This document shows, piece after piece, positions 2,323-55,868 of a stretch of DNA of 64,000 nucleotides. Numbering within the stretch: position 1 is the first letter of the stretch; each line of letters starts with the position of its first letter. The notes under the pieces were generated by a model. The model saw only the letters and a program-made list of their open reading frames with translations, was not told the DNA's origin and ran no database searches. Location: NCBI GenBank assembly GCA_043803765.1, contig JAZDJQ010000018.1, positions 1 through 64,000 of the forward strand, written 5' to 3'. The DNA comes from Candidatus Iainarchaeum sp. (GTDB taxonomy: Archaea > Iainarchaeota > Iainarchaeia > Iainarchaeales > VGJJ01). The position numbers were made by a program, and so were the translations under genes.

Positions 2323-5300
2323 GACCCCCCTTCAAGAATACGAACCAATCCAGAAGTAGCGTCTACCTCGACTTCATCTCCATCATTAAGTGTGGCCGTC
2401 CCCGATTTCGTTCCCACGATACAGGGTTTTTTCATCTCACGCGCCACAATGGCTGCATGGCACATCATTCCACCTTCATCCGTCACAAAAGCAGCTGCCT
2501 TCTTCATTTCCTGAAGGAAATCAGGCATTGTCATCGGCGAGACAAGGATCTGCCCTTCTTGAATTTTTCCAAAATCATTATGTCCCATCACACGACAAAC
2601 AATTCCCCGCACTTTTCCGGGATGAGCAGTCTCTCCTTTTACTTCAGGCCCTGAAACGGCCTCAATTTGCTCCAACTGGATAGAATATTTTTCTTCAATC
2701 TCTTCTCGTGAAGCACCCACAAGAAGATCAGAATCCACCTGGTAGTATCCCGCATCCCGCAAAGCCAATTCTTCCTTTGATGGAGTGACTCCTTTACGAA
2801 TCTCCTCCAATGTGAACATCGAAGAAAGCTCACCAAGTTCAGGATAAATTTTTTTCAATGATTTTCGAATCACTACATCAGTTCCGGCTGAAAGCTTGTC
2901 CGTAAGGACACGGATTTTCTTAATGTTTGAATTATCCGCGCCCAATTCTTCAGGAGTGAGCCGATACAGCCACCACATTGCTTCTACCCAAGAATAGACT
3001 GAAATAAATGAATCAATAAACTTCTTCAATTCAGGCAAATCCAACGTTTGCTCTTCTTCATAAATCGGCCGGATATATGAAATGCCCTCCAATACCTTCT
3101 TCTCAACTTTTGTGAGAAATGAGGCATCTTTCTTTGTCCGCTGAATCAACTGATTATTCATCCACCCTAATGCATTAGGATTAAAATACACATGAACCGT
3201 TCCATCAATACGCTCCGCCACCATATGCGGTTTATGCGGAGAAGTATCAAGATACCACGGTTTATTCGGAGACGATTCGCAAGTCAGCGCTAATTGAATG
3301 GTGGATAATGAAAAATCACGCGAAAAAACACGCTCATAAGGTTTTACCTTTTCCTTGGCAATACGAATAACTCCATTATCTGCATCCACTTCAACTACCA
3401 TTTCATTTTTCAAAAGTTGAGTCGCGACTTTTGTGCCAATTATGCATGGTTTTTTCATTTCTCTGGCAACAACAGCGGCGTGACATGTGATTCCACCCTC
3501 ATCTGTGATAAAGGCAGCAGCTTTTTGCATCACGGGAGCCATGTCAGGAGTAGTCATTGTTGTAACTATGATAGCTCCTTCCTTCACTTTTTGAAAATCA
3601 GATTTTGATTGGATTAGGACAACTTTTCCCACTATTTTTCCTTTATAGGCAGTGGTTCCTTTTAGCTCATCTAAATTTAATCGTTCCTTTTCGAGGTGTT
3701 CCTCTTCGAGTTCAATCATTTTTTTTGGATTAGTTTCAAAAATAACCTTATCGGGCTCAACCGTGATAATAACAAATCCTTTTTCACGTAATTCAATTTC
3801 ATTGTTTGACAAGATTACATTACCAAGAAGCTCATCTGGTCGATAAGCAAGAATTTCCTTCCAAGATAATCTCTTTCGTTTGGCGATTTCCTCAATTAAG
3901 GGTCGAACGTTGGCGAATGCTAAACTCAAATAATCGGTTCGATAGGTTCGATAATAAACCAACTCTTTTGCAATAGAAACGAGATTTGAAAAAACCTTAT
4001 CAGCCGATAACTTTCTTAACAATGCTTCGGAATTTCGAATACTTTCACGCTCAAACTTATCCAATTCTCTGAGTTTTGCCCCACAGTCTGTTTGACATAA
4101 ATCCTTCAAGCGTTCAAAAAATTGTGCCTCTGTCCAAGGGTCATCGATTCCACCGCGCGTATTCATCCAACCAAACTCATCTAAATGAGAACGAATTTTT
4201 TGACTAAAATTATGAGGCAATTTTTCAACAGTAGTTACCTCAACTTTCTTTTTTTGCAGTTCAGAAGCAATTAAAAGTACATTCCTTTGTTCCAACGCAG
4301 CAAAATTCTTCTTAGTTGGAAACGTAAGAATGGAGAGTTCTTCATCTAAATCATTAGAGCCTTTCAATCGTTCACGGATTGCCATCTCTACTGGGCCTTG
4401 CAACCCCCACCCTGCTAACGCGATGGAAAATAACTCGTATTTCTTAACGAACTCACGAAATGTGTCCATTAACTTATCATTTGAGAAAGATGAAAAATTA
4501 GTCACTTTCATTTTTTCAGAAAACAATTTCAGTTCTTCTCCTATAGAATAAATGGTATCGAATACATTCAATACTGAGCCTTGTTTGGTCATTTCCTTAT
4601 CAAATAAACGCTGCCCCAAATCATGGATTTCCTTCCCAAAACACCATTTATCAGTAAAAACGCCAGTAGTTAGATAAAAGTCATTTAGCTCCATTAGTTG
4701 TTCAAAACTTTTAGGCCTTGATAGCCCGGACACAAACATATCTGAAATCAAAATACCATAACGGCGTGTAACAACCGCCTTCATCTTTCCTGACTTCACT
4801 GCAGAAGAAAATTCTTTCAAAGTCGTAATCGGCCTTGATTGCGTAATGTAAAAGATCCCTTTTTCCAAAGCCCATTCCACATCAACAGGAAATCCATAAT
4901 GCGCTTCAATTTTCAAAACGAGTTTTCCTAATTCCTGAATTTGAGTATCATCAAGTTTCTGCAAGGAACCCTTTTCAGAATCGATTTCCTTCCATTCATT
5001 ACCCCCATTTTCCAAACGAAAAATACCCCTCTTCTGCTCGCTCACATTCTTATTCAAAAAACCAAAAGGTTTCTTCTCCAACACATACGAGTCCGGGGTA
5101 ATCTGTCCGGAAACAATGGCCTCACCCAAGCCATAACCTGCTTCGATAATGAGTTGATTATAGTCTTGTGTTACAGGGTGCACGGAAAACGCAATCCCAG
5201 ACACCTCACTCTCCACCATCTTCTGCACCACTACGGCCACTGAAATGTGTTCGCCGTGCAACCCTTTTTCGAATCGGTAAAAAATAGCTCTGGGAGTGAA

Positions 5301-10488: not shown

Positions 10489-11121
10489 ATGTCCAAAGAA
10501 AAGAAAGGTGGATGGCAGGCTAATGTGGAATTCTTTGATAATTATGTCATTAAAACGCCCAAAACCGATTATGAAATAAGGAAAAAAATCTCAAAATATT
10601 TGAAACCCAAGGGAAAATTACACACTTTGGACAAAAGAGTAGAGGAGATGAAAAAAGGTTGGAAAGAAGGAATTCGAATACTAAACAAAAAGAAGATTCC
10701 TACAAGAATGCTGGGGTATATCGAATTTCTTGAGCATGGAAAAATTCGACAGAAAAAAGTGATTACACTTGAAGATTCTTGGAATGAAGCGGCGGATAAC
10801 GGAAACGTTAAAGAAATGAAAAAAATAGTGAACAAGGCTATTAATTTTATTATAGAATTGTGGAAATATGGAATTCATGAAAAAACGGGTAAAATAGGTT
10901 ATGAATTTGGATTAATGAAAAACAAAATCATTCTAATTGACTTTGGAGAAATAAGCGAAAATAAAAAAATACCTCAAAAACAAATTTTGAAAAAATACTG
11001 GAAAAAGCCACTTGAAAGACACTCAAGGAAAGAAGTACTCAATTATTTCAACAAAATGGCTGACAAAAAACTAACCATTCAAACGCTCAACAAAAACTGG
11101 AACAAAAAAAGAGAAAAATAA
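10489..11121 (+). CDS. Hypothetical Lys-rich protein with degenerate protein-kinase-like motifs
   Basis: GGWQANV, YVIK, GIHEK, IILIDFGE; ATG at 10489. Confidence 0.55.
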   Translation: MSKEKKGGWQANVEFFDNYVIKTPKTDYEIRKKISKYLKPKGKLHTLDKRVEEMKKGWKEGIRILNKKKIPTRMLGYIEFLEHGKIRQKKVITLEDSWNEAADNGNVKEMKKIVNKAINFIIELWKYGIHEKTGKIGYEFGLMKNKIILIDFGEISENKKIPQKQILKKYWKKPLERHSRKEVLNYFNKMADKKLTIQTLNKNWNKKREK

Positions 11122-15855: not shown

Positions 15856-15927
15856 GCGGAGTTGGCAGAGCAGCAGTCCTTTTGCCTAACGGCAAAAGCC
15901 CTGGGGGAAAATGCTCTGACGACAAAT
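15856..15927. mobile_element. 72-bp unit: 15-bp duplicate of the tRNA-Ser 5' end plus a hairpin element
   Basis: GCGGAGTTGGCAGAG at 15856 and 15928; CTTTTGCC-TAAC-GGCAAAAG hairpin; reverse complement matches the 54.7-kb array units. Confidence 0.6.
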
Positions 15928-16011
15928 GCGGAGTTGGCAGAGTGGTCTATAGCGGCAGCCTGCTAAGCTGTTCCGGGAAACCGGGCGAGGGTTCGAATCC
16001 CTCACTCCGCG
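15928..16011 (+). tRNA. tRNA-Ser(GCT)
   Basis: GCGGAGT/ACTCCGC acceptor stem, anticodon loop CTGCTAA, long variable arm, GGTTCGAATCC; no CCA. Confidence 0.95.
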
Positions 16012-18350: not shown

Positions 18351-18555
18351 GCGCTGTTTTCTCCTGTTTGATACTATTATTGGCTGAATTTCTACCCAAC
18401 CAACACCTAAAACCTGCCAAACATGCTTATAAACCCGTGCATGGGAAACGGCCAAAGAGGAAATAACATAGATAAAATGGTCTAAAACGCCAGCAAGGAG
18501 AAAAACCCAATAACCCTATTCCCAAAAAGAAATACAGGAGACAAGATACAGAACC

Positions 18556-53924: not shown

Positions 53925-54662
53925 CTATCCAACAAAAGCAAATATGTTCTTTTGCTTCTCAATCACAACTCCGTCTTCTTTAGCAAACTCCAACACAATA
54001 CGGGAAAGAACAGGAGGAATATTCGTTTCACAAGAAATGCTAGCCAAATCCACTTTCTTATGACGCTGAATACAAGATAGTGTTATAGGAGTACTCTTCT
54101 GAAGAAGGCTATTCAACACAATATAATAAAATCCGTCAAATGATTTGATCCCTTTGATTTCCCCCGCCTTAATTCTATCCGCCAAATCATACGATGCCGC
54201 TTTTGCCGCTCCTTCCGTACGCAACACTTGAAAACCATCCCGAATAAGGGAATATTCTTCCACGGGCTTCTCAGGAATAAAAGAGTTTAACTCAACCGAA
54301 AGAATTGGACTCATTTTATCCGAAGTGGCAATCTGATATATTCCTTTATCAAAATGAGGACTAGACTTTTGAATCGTTATTTTTCCCTGAGAGCGCAACA
54401 CGTTAAACGCGGACAATTCTTCATTGGATAATAAACGCTCAAATCTTCCCTCAACCAAATCGGGAGTTTTGTGCGTCTGCATAAGACGAAGGACTTTGCC
54501 TTCCAACACACTTAATGAGGGCTCGACTAATGAAAGAGACCATTCTCCTTTTCCTTTGCATTGAATAGATAGTTCCCCACTCTCGGGCAATTGAACAGAA
54601 TGAAAATCCGCCTCGCTTAAATGAGAACGAAGCCATTCAATGGATAGACGGGGGGAAGGCAT
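53925..54662 (-). CDS. Hypothetical protein, possibly with a C-terminal wHTH
   Basis: Long open frame with codon style like its neighbours. Confidence 0.6.
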   Translation of the reverse strand: MPSPRLSIEWLRSHLSEADFHSVQLPESGELSIQCKGKGEWSLSLVEPSLSVLEGKVLRLMQTHKTPDLVEGRFERLLSNEELSAFNVLRSQGKITIQKSSPHFDKGIYQIATSDKMSPILSVELNSFIPEKPVEEYSLIRDGFQVLRTEGAAKAASYDLADRIKAGEIKGIKSFDGFYYIVLNSLLQKSTPITLSCIQRHKKVDLASISCETNIPPVLSRIVLEFAKEDGVVIEKQKNIFAFVG

Positions 54663-54727
54663 ACACACTATACTGTTGCTACGTGTAAAGATTTAAGGGT
54701 AGTGCGAATAAAACACGCGTATAAATG

Positions 54728-55014
54728 AATAAAGGCCAATGCAAAGCCACTTTTCTCAGGGGTTTTTACAAAGTAAAAAGGCCCATGCGATAGCAAATTT
54801 TCCCCGGGGTTTTTACGAAGTAAAAAGGCCGAAGTGAAACAACTTTTCCCCGGGGTTTTTATGAAATAAAAAGGCCGAAGCGAAGCATTCTTTTCCCCGG
54901 GATTTTTACGAAGTAAAAAGGCCGAAGCGAAGCAAATTTTCCCCCGGGGCTTTTTCCAACAGGAAAAAGGGCCGACGCGCAAGCTACTTTTCGCCGGCCT
55001 TTTTTAAAAGGCCG
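54728..55014 (+). repeat. Tandem array of six ~46-50-bp double-hairpin units
   Basis: Consensus AAAAAGGCCGAAGCGAAGCAAATTTTCCCCGGGGTTTTTACGAAGT. Confidence 0.9.
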
Positions 55015-55016
55015 AA

Positions 55017-55769
55017 TTACAACTCTCCCATCTTGTGAACAATCAACCCTTCTTTGGAAAAAACCATCTCCGCTACTCCATTATAATGACCTGTTCCCCT
55101 CATTTTGAGTATTTCCAACTGATGCCTTCTCACACGCTGACCGGTCTCATTCTCATTCTGGGAATAGGAAAATTGGATAATCCCATCCGTTAGAAAACCA
55201 ATTTCACCTGCACGAACATCAACGATTCCAGCGAGCTGCTCGGCAATAATCAAACTCGTACAACCCCAACGGACGAGCATTTCAAAAAACAATAATAATG
55301 CTTCCCGCTGTTTGTAGTCATCACGAAATAACAACCCATACGCCGTAATCGAATCAATCACCAAGCGTTTGGCACCAATCTCCGTAATCGTATCACGAAC
55401 CGTACCACCGCCTTCCTCTAACAACTTATTCACCTGATGCGCTTTGTAAAACAAGTGACGAGAAAGATTTTTTTTCTCCAAATCATAAAAATCCCACCCA
55501 AAATTAAGGCAGTGAGAATAAATACTATCCTTGCTTTCAGCAAAACTCAAGTAAACACCCGGTTCGTTCCATTTTACCGCACCATTATACAAGAATTGCA
55601 TGGCAAAAGTCGTTTTCCCCGTTCCGGCATAACCGGCAAGCAACGTATTTGTTTTCTCCTCAAAACCACTGTCAATCAATTCATCAAAGCCCGGAATACC
55701 CGTAGGAACACGCTTGACAGTAGGACGACCCTGCACAATAGAAGTGGGAATATTCACCATGTCCGGCAT
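55017..55769 (-). CDS. KaiC/RAD55-like RecA-fold ATPase (second paralog)
   Basis: TGIPGFD, GYAGTGKT, LVIDS, KMRGT. Confidence 0.9.
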   Translation of the reverse strand: MPDMVNIPTSIVQGRPTVKRVPTGIPGFDELIDSGFEEKTNTLLAGYAGTGKTTFAMQFLYNGAVKWNEPGVYLSFAESKDSIYSHCLNFGWDFYDLEKKNLSRHLFYKAHQVNKLLEEGGGTVRDTITEIGAKRLVIDSITAYGLLFRDDYKQREALLLFFEMLVRWGCTSLIIAEQLAGIVDVRAGEIGFLTDGIIQFSYSQNENETGQRVRRHQLEILKMRGTGHYNGVAEMVFSKEGLIVHKMGEL

Positions 55770-55868
55770 ACGGAAAAGAAAAGAAGGCAACGTATATAAG
55801 CGATTACCCCCGCTCAACGGCGACAGGGTTCCGCGCGCCTTAAATGGATTCTCCACCCCATCACCGCC

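Follow-up and report, generated by a model that had tools for sequence, protein, structure and literature searches.

The 64,000-nt stretch of Candidatus Iainarchaeum sp. analyzed here (the window; positions 1 to 64,000 of contig JAZDJQ010000018.1) carries, at the 3′ end of a gene for a KaiC/RecA-like ATPase, a tandem array of six hairpin-bearing units of about 47 nt each (54731–55004). On balance, we consider it probable that a small, non-coding palindromic element has here been amplified in tandem into a cluster, and that this element spreads as inserted DNA to the ends of transcription units. The tRNA genes are the main target of this element, and the end of the target is duplicated where it inserts. 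The array belongs to a family of small, insertion-prone palindromic repeats that is apparently undescribed. To our knowledge, the small palindromic repeats of bacteria have received much study, and those of DPANN archaea have not. In such genomes of about 1 Mb there is little space for selfish DNA, and the family shows where its refuges lie, namely behind stop codons, beside tRNA genes, and in tRNA introns. In what follows, G000 denotes the source genome of the window and the other G numbers its relatives; C numbers denote contigs of G000, and L numbers denote sampled loci.

The Repeat Unit and Its Distribution

Tandem Repeats Finder, applied to the window, calls the array at 54731–55004 with a period of 47, 5.8 copies, 81% matches and a score of 310, compared to a score of 60 for the runner-up among its 43 rows. 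A repeat search places six copies in register at spacings of 46, 47, 46, 47, and 50 nt, and all six units are arranged head to tail, such that the six tandem units described in an earlier note on this DNA are borne out by both approaches. Read on the strand that carries the purine-rich loops, the unit of approximately 47 nt can be divided into four parts: a T-run/C-run linker (TTTTCCCC) similar in appearance to the oligo-T terminators native to these genomes, together with a long hairpin, a GGCC foot, and a mini-hairpin. The long hairpin spans 12–16 bp; its outermost pairs are three G-C pairs, after which come a G.G (or GG.GG) mismatch, the T5/A5 core, a tip of 2–3 bp that varies, and a loop of 3–4 nt. 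The individual units are as follows, with scores from the covariance model described below.

54728–54750, + strand: degenerate leading unit, with the hairpin-foot remnant AAAGGCC and the mini-hairpin GC-AAA-GC (65% identity to the reference copy)
54751–54797, + strand: unit 1, with the T-run/C-run linker, long hairpin at 54763–54779 (tip AC/GT, loop AAA), foot GGCCC, and mini-hairpin GC-GATA-GC (66.1 bits)
54798–54843, + strand: unit 2, with the long hairpin at 54810–54826 (loop GAA) and mini-hairpin GT-GAA-AC (77.6 bits)
54844–54890, + strand: unit 3, with the long hairpin at 54856–54872, compensatory tip AT/AT, and mini-hairpin GCGAAGC (74.5 bits)
54891–54936, + strand: unit 4, with the long hairpin at 54903–54919 and mini-hairpin GCGAAGC (77.8 bits)
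54937–54986, + strand: unit 5, with the long hairpin at 54950–54969 (tip CC/GG, loop AACA) and mini-hairpin GC-GCAA-GC (26 bits)
54987–55016, + strand: terminal unit, with the mismatch-free hairpin variant CGGCC-TTTT-TT-AAAA-GGCCG at 54995–55014 (19.4 bits)

All of the variants that had been listed for the first hairpin are present in the letters (TTTTTAC-AAA-GTAAAAA, TTTTTAC-GAA-GTAAAAA twice, TTTTTAT-GAA-ATAAAAA, TTTTTCC-AACA-GGAAAAA, and the terminal CGGCCTTTT-TT-AAAAGGCCG), as are those of the second (GC-AAA-GC, GC-GATA-GC, GT-GAA-AC, GC-GAA-GC twice, and GC-GCAA-GC), with the correction that the long hairpin continues outward, beyond the G.G mismatch, by three further G-C pairs. The mini-hairpin is of the GCGNAGC type, and an exact match to GCGNAGC or GCGNNAGC is seen in four of the six second hairpins (GCGAAGC twice, GCGATAGC, and GCGCAAGC). 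The linker motif that had been noted between the two hairpins occurs nine times in the window with up to three mismatches, compared to 0.75 occurrences expected, and nine or more occurrences were obtained in 0 of 100 shuffles. The terminal variant is frequent in congeners, where BLAST gives many matches of 27–30 nt at 90–100% identity (in G002, G003, G004, G007, G011, and others). Examined as a possible CRISPR array, the stretch repeats its entire 47-nt period with no unique spacers, and Cas1 was not found in G000.

A covariance model was built from seven equal-length units with a hand-written structure, and was used to align 50 matches from G000 and its relatives. On this model-fitted alignment, the long hairpin forms standard pairs in 94.7% of 512 cells, with changes on both sides in 8 of its 12 pairs (67 cells); the observed pairing score was reached in 0 of 500 shuffles, and controls with slid partners pair at 37–70%. 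The covariation that had been proposed is recovered, and the long hairpin is kept by compensatory change. We note that RNAalifold predicted no pairs on a plain MAFFT alignment of 20 units, in which tips of unequal length are misaligned.

The source genome G000 comprises 1.02 Mb in 19 contigs, with 42% G+C and an estimated completeness of 93%. The model finds 23 matches in it at E ≤ 1, and together with one copy found by motif these give 14 loci of the family. A weak match on contig C19 was not family-like and was removed from this count, and a hairpin after tRNA-Pro(CGG), which has another stem type, was counted as a tRNA-end duplication outside the 14. Ten of the 14 loci lie within 150 nt of a tRNA gene, a range that covers 1.7% of the genome, while the remaining four are arrays between protein genes, of which the six-unit array is the largest and the others hold 4, 2, and 2 units. 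The head-to-tail order recurs in the arrays on C1, C6, C11, C12, and C14. As a separate observation, the six multi-unit arrays (on C1, C6, C11, C12, C14, and C18) all lie on the + strand, which would be a 1-in-32 coincidence with arbitrary contig orientation. Hairpins with identical tip and foot are found at different loci of one genome, and most copies sit in convergent or tandem spacers, with few in divergent ones, as judged from crude stop-to-stop open reading frames.

Across the order, the covariance model detects the family in 42 of 151 genomes and 25 of 65 genera (10 of 15 congeners), with at most 24 matches per genome, and a BLAST search with the array gives matches in 14 of 41 relatives. 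The earlier suggestion of a dispersed family, for which a model-based scan had been proposed, thus holds beyond the window. No Rfam family reached its gathering score even at permissive search thresholds (the best, isrD, scored 25.1 bits against a threshold of 37), and no description of the family was found in the literature searched, which left subscription journals and supplementary files outside its range; within that range, the family does appear to be as new as had been suspected.

Occupied Sites and Duplicated Targets

The clearest case of insertion is the 3′ end of the PCNA gene. This end is plain in 14 of 17 genomes, whereas G007 and G005 carry the family there and G012 a different palindrome family. 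Each of these three genomes has the same last ~33 nt, including the stop codon, both before and after the hairpin, and the repeat continues through the T-run in G007, the genome in which this was read off. As the insertion duplicates the end of its target, the target gene stays whole.

The site of the six-unit array can likewise be compared between filled and empty states. Its borders are formed by the following two features.

55017–55856, − strand: KaiC/RecA-like ATPase gene, whose stop codon (55017–55019) touches the terminal hairpin, with the array forming its 3′ flank in antisense
54690–54699, − strand: promoter-like box CCCTTAAATC of the downstream gene for a 247-aa protein (53925–54668), marking the far edge of the insertion site

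The array is thus flanked by two minus-strand genes, and this gene pair is kept in 16 of 16 congeners. In 14 of these 16, the orthologous spacer is short and has, by eye, a T6–T9 run and the box, with neither an array nor a hairpin of this kind. G006 has a palindrome unrelated to the family at this site, and G007 has a single intact unit together with one or two decayed ones, which begin at the same junction, as confirmed with the covariance model in this one congener. A tree based on four proteins makes G000 the sister of G003 (support 0.997), with G007 branching outside. A box of the CCTTAAAT type lies ~25 nt ahead of the start codon in G000 and in 16 of 16 congeners (by eye). With respect to this neighboring gene, we observed that its listed GTG start lies at 54668, while the upstream alignment of congeners suggests an ATG start ~6 nt downstream, ~25 nt past the CCTTAAAT box (window 54660–54668), which would imply a very short leader or none. 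Among sequencing runs, one weak DNA match (0.05 of words) was found, with one 151-nt contig corresponding to 55298–55448 inside the KaiC-like gene and none over the array; no RNA run contained the stretch.

In the case of the tRNA genes, the window itself contains two single copies of the family.

15856–15926, − strand: copy in the leader of tRNA-Ser(GCU), with a 15-nt duplicate of the tRNA 5′ end (15856–15870 and 15928–15942); 21.9 bits
18533–18590, − strand: copy directly 3′ of tRNA-Leu(CAA), beyond which the tRNA 3′ end is repeated in degenerate form, its T loop altered (18533–18555); 20.8 bits

The element had been noted beside both tRNA genes, and these copies are real; the accompanying statement that only one of them has a target duplication does not hold, as both carry one, of 15 nt at tRNA-Ser and of about 19 matching positions in 23 nt at tRNA-Leu. 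Among the 46 tRNA genes of G000, six have a downstream copy of their last 12 nt and five an upstream copy of their first 12 nt. The 3′-end copies and the two 5′ copies at tRNA-Ser genes sit just past a hairpin, and the three 5′ copies at tRNA-Arg genes belong to a different repeat. The latter repeat, of ~95 nt, lies upstream of three tRNA-Arg genes (C18 ~91395–91701, of which L038 contains the last ~100 nt, 91600–91701; C7 ~3062–3160; and C9 ~10790–10883). Its unit opens with a duplicate of the tRNA 5′ end, has two hairpins and a cloverleaf-like fold, and three units stand in tandem between tRNA-Leu(UAG) and tRNA-Arg(CCG).

Considering all 86 model matches, flank repeats score at least 12 in 30, compared to 3.4 expected from mismatched flanks. 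In 14 of these 30 the repeat is that of the target rather than of a neighboring unit, with eight tRNA ends and six protein-gene ends; the latter are five 3′ ends, four of which readably include the stop codon (L078 is the fifth), and one 5′ end with its ATG. In the sampled loci, which are a biased sample containing 50 tRNA genes, 19 tRNA genes have a 3′-end copy, and in 18 of these 19 it directly follows a T/A-centered hairpin and starts in the T loop. The same arrangement of hairpin and 3′-end copy is found in 12 of the 28 readable tRNA-Lys genes of the genus (31 listed), with at least five stem types. The joint between foot and copy tracks the hairpin type and the genome, being GTTCTGAATC at four different tRNA genes of G000 and a one-base variant of it at a fifth. 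We also observed a trailer module directly 3′ of some tRNA genes, consisting of a T-arm-like stem-loop (TCCA...TGGA, with an GTTCCGAT-like loop) followed by ACCAACCGG, after tRNA-Leu(CAG) of G000 (L038 ~1376–1410) and after tRNA-Lys of G002 and G004 (L131 and L133). In three other genera, tRNA-Gly genes have anticodon-loop introns of 119, 85, and 64 nt that consist largely of the element in antisense (L063/G072, L069/G086, and L120/G084), the longest of them holding two tandem units. Duplicated tRNA ends and repeat-filled introns of this type are traps both for automatic tRNA annotation and for the calling of integration sites.

The boundaries of the duplications follow a common pattern. Their length is variable, from 12 to about 45 nt. 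On the outside they stop where a terminator-like T-run/C-run ends, and this point is also where the element has its left end. On the inside they reach to the T loop in tRNA genes and to ATG(C) in approximately four of the six protein-gene cases; in canonical units, ATG(C) is matched by the bases that come first after the foot. These sites are shared by different palindrome families. A second such family, with arms of the GATCAAAC/GATTAAAC type, is present in the congeners G011, G012, and G014 (L078, L106, L110, L115, L135, and L166) at comparable sites (at tRNA ends and at the end of PCNA), also with target duplications; at L115 the two families are adjacent, and after each comes a copy of one and the same 12-nt gene end. 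Taken together, the empty and filled sites and the flank duplications bear out the earlier proposal that the element is able both to amplify in tandem and to insert elsewhere.

An alternative is that the hairpins are host cis-elements that evolved in place, either as bidirectional oligo-T terminators or as 3′-end hairpins, and were selected and multiplied by slippage without ever moving. This explanation has some appeal at the array itself, which starts right after a stop codon and has a T5 run on both strands in each of units 1–5 (in the terminal unit, the mRNA strand has T4 and the opposite strand T6). These T5 runs are the only ones in the KaiC spacer of G000, where congeners have a plain T6–T9 run, and thus the array may double as the terminator of the KaiC-like gene, taking the place of the T-run of its relatives. 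The preference for convergent and tandem spacers and the conservation of the sequence in 25 genera would also fit. However, the duplicated gene and tRNA ends beside the hairpins play no part in termination, the identical hairpin, tip, and foot recur at different loci of one genome, and copies occur in tRNA 5′ leaders and in the three tRNA-Gly introns, where a run of T6–T7 would truncate the tRNA. Furthermore, the purine loops lie on one DNA strand regardless of the direction of the neighboring gene. We therefore regard evolution in place as unlikely.

The duplicated tRNA ends raise a second alternative, in which the hairpin and the repeated end are the attL/attR remnants of an integrated plasmid or virus that has since been deleted. 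Integrases that target the T loop classically use, as their attachment core, the stretch between the T loop and the 3′ end, and the duplicated block here spans the T loop to just past the 3′ end, with the direct repeat starting in the T loop in the 18 of 19 tRNA genes mentioned above. Integrated elements are a known source of partial tRNA genes, according to PMC9897764, and G000 has three tyrosine-integrase genes, one of them ~0.5 kb from tRNA-Met. Against this, the inserts are only 50–200 nt long, non-coding, and made up of one repeat family at no fewer than eight different tRNA genes of one genome, whereas one element cannot carry a matching attachment core for every tRNA; the same arrangement is, moreover, found at the ends of PCNA and other protein genes, at the 5′ ends of genes, and within the tandem arrays. 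We consider such scars an improbable source of these structures, less probable than cis-elements.

Strand Asymmetry and Possible Routes of Spread

The hairpins are strongly asymmetric with respect to the strand. For 74 hairpins parsed out of 94 sequences, the loop is purine-rich in 66 and pyrimidine-rich in one, with GAA alone accounting for 27. The second position outward from the T/A core is a G.G mismatch in 66 of the 74, and the fourth pair outward is A-T in 38 and G-C in 28. A relaxed mini-hairpin motif, G[CT]G-N1-2-A[GA]C, is present on the purine-loop strand in 44 of 74, compared to 6 of 74 for its reverse complement on that same strand, and many of the long-hairpin tips in relatives are GC-GAA-GC. 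The GCGNAGC/GCGNNAGC motif is described in PMC13037366 as having extraordinary stability as DNA and far lower stability as RNA. The + strand of the array, folded as DNA, has a z-score of −3.8, with 0 of 200 shuffles folding as well, while the mRNA-sense strand folded as RNA has a z-score of −1.72, with 12 of 200 shuffles as good. Orientation relative to transcription is mixed, the element being sense after tRNA genes and antisense after the KaiC-like gene and in the three tRNA-Gly introns. The purine bias of the loops on one strand only (66 compared to 1) points to folded single-stranded DNA, and, from loop composition and motif, the element would seem to act in this form and not as RNA. The single-strand structure that had been read from the array alone is in keeping with this asymmetry and with the GCGNAGC/GCGNNAGC motif.

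A further alternative is a Y1 (HUH) transposase of the RAYT (REP-associated tyrosine transposase) or IS200 type, recognizing and moving the hairpins as single-stranded DNA in trans, as for bacterial repetitive extragenic palindromes (REPs) and bacterial interspersed mosaic elements (BIMEs). The earlier note had drawn this analogy, and the short imperfect extragenic palindromes at gene ends, their conserved mismatch, and the signs of single-stranded DNA all speak for it. A profile search finds one Y1_Tnp gene in G000, on contig C4 (E = 2.7e-29); the relatives within the genus in which Y1 was found are only G004 and G007, both of which are among the strongest BLAST matches to the array. However, the gene of G000 lies within an IS200-like element of ~590 nt (L028 on C4, 162–748) that has end hairpins of its own and no TnpB, lies ~100 nt from tRNA-Arg(CCU), and has related copies in G007. 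The left-end hairpin of this element does have a CGGCC/GGCCG stem, as in the terminal unit, but apart from such a GGCC stem its conserved ends differ from the repeat unit, and no repeat flanks it. Nor are the two co-distributed: among the 41 relatives, the repeat and Y1 are found together in 3, the repeat alone in 11, Y1 alone in 5, and neither in 22, such that Y1 is absent from 11 of the 14 genomes with the repeat and the repeat from 5 of the 8 with Y1. At the hairpin foot, the tetranucleotide GTAG or CGTC was seen in 2 of 74, and the arrays run head to tail and do not alternate. Finally, IS200/IS605-type chemistry is not known to make target duplications of the 12–45 nt type present here. 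With no tag, head-to-tail units, target duplications, and no cognate Y1, this mechanism has become improbable. The window itself contains no nuclease gene, in agreement with the earlier statement, and the one Y1 gene elsewhere in the genome is not cognate.

The remaining possibility, that the array is a gene cluster of small structured RNAs processed to ~47-nt units, is very improbable, as its regular units with a conserved fold are accompanied by Rfam scores below threshold, no promoter-like box recurring within the units as read from the sequence, an unremarkable fold of the mRNA-sense RNA, mixed orientation relative to transcription, and the lack of the array at the orthologous site in 14 of 16 congeners.

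Turning back to insertion of a mobile element, searches of G000 for a TnpB-type domain, Cas1, and reverse transcriptase found none, and no parent element was found through these, the Y1, or the integrase searches. We put forward, tentatively and as a possibility that we hold to be short of probable, a transposase-free route of templated insertion, in which a hairpin cassette mimicking both the terminator T-run and the T loop of tRNA is copied from gene end to gene end. Such a route would involve no dedicated transposase; instead, a replication or repair polymerase of the host would switch template. A nascent strand ending in a T-run/C-run terminator could re-pair with the identical linker of an existing element, copy the hairpin, and then stall and be released. 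It would return to the original template upstream, at short homology provided by the near-universal T loop in tRNA genes and often by ATG(C) in protein genes, and, because this return is upstream, the end of the target would be copied again. The direct repeats so formed would then drive slippage or unequal exchange, by which units could be added, as in the six-unit array, or the insert removed. Landing in an anticodon loop would create a new tRNA intron.

Were no enzyme of its own involved, the family would represent a repeat that spreads by means of the replication errors of the cell, that is, selfish DNA without its own enzyme. If true, this would also provide a concrete and testable route for intron gain, partial duplicates, and gene fragmentation in the tRNA genes of archaea.

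Several observations weigh against insertion of a mobile element, or against this particular route. Template switching is deduced from the anatomy of the junctions, and ATG forms the inner boundary in only approximately four of the six protein-gene cases. The outer flanks of the six-unit array show no target duplication, so that the case for its own origin by insertion is drawn from the empty orthologous sites and from analogy with the other copies. G000 and G007 share the KaiC site yet are not sisters, which requires either losses or two separate gains. The orientation of the element has no consistent relation to GC or AT skew, and hence gives no sign of a replication-strand bias, and the T6–T7 runs within the three tRNA-Gly introns speak against strong termination in general. 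Covariation was counted on an alignment fitted to the structure of the model, so that the counts lean toward that structure. Finally, the enzyme search covered five families in a genome that is 93% complete, and conservation across 25 genera could mean that the hairpin is recognized by a host protein or by an undetected nuclease.

Comparison with Known Systems

Taking these points into account, the family shares features with several known systems. As in REP/BIME sequences, as described in PMC3733652, its members are short imperfect extragenic palindromes that are concentrated at 3′ ends, clustered, and variable with pairing kept, and that are thought to act as folded single strands. In the bacterial REP/BIME and RAYT systems, according to that same text (PMC3733652), one foot of the palindrome bears GTAG or CGTC as a conserved tag. 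In contrast, the family of the array is archaeal, has this tag in 2 of 74 hairpins, is arranged head to tail with a 47-nt period, and has a second mini-hairpin; it also has long target duplications, a strong preference for tRNA genes, and no cognate Y1.

Like miniature inverted-repeat transposable elements, the family is non-coding, dispersed, polymorphic for presence and absence, and flanked by direct repeats of the target. Unlike these elements, its “inverted repeat” is a single 30-nt hairpin with a loop of 3–4 nt, its duplications are long and variable (12–45 nt) and stop at landmarks in the target, namely the T loop, ATG, or the point where the T-run ends, and no parent insertion sequence was found. 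A miniature derived from IS200/IS605, of the palindrome-associated transposable element type, was considered and rejected, as the ends of the insertion sequence do not match the unit (the GGCC stem aside) and target duplications are present. The resemblance to attL/attR scars lies in the duplicated block, which runs from the T loop to the 3′ end, with the distal copy altered just 5′ of the block; the family differs from such scars in being a hairpin module of 50–200 nt without integrase or cargo genes, found at many tRNA genes, at protein-gene ends, and in arrays.

The d(GCGAAGC) mini-hairpin (PMC13037366) is known from phage and plasmid priming sites and from chemistry; it is not known as a component of a genomic repeat family, as which it is found here. 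The closest parallels to the proposed route are microhomology-mediated break-induced replication, fork stalling and template switching, and templated mutation at quasi-palindromes, which similarly involve templated insertion with duplication between the points of exit and return. They likewise share short homologies at the junctions and a switch that is promoted by hairpins. These processes usually produce sporadic rearrangements, whereas here the same cargo would be copied repeatedly, in the manner of a mobile family.

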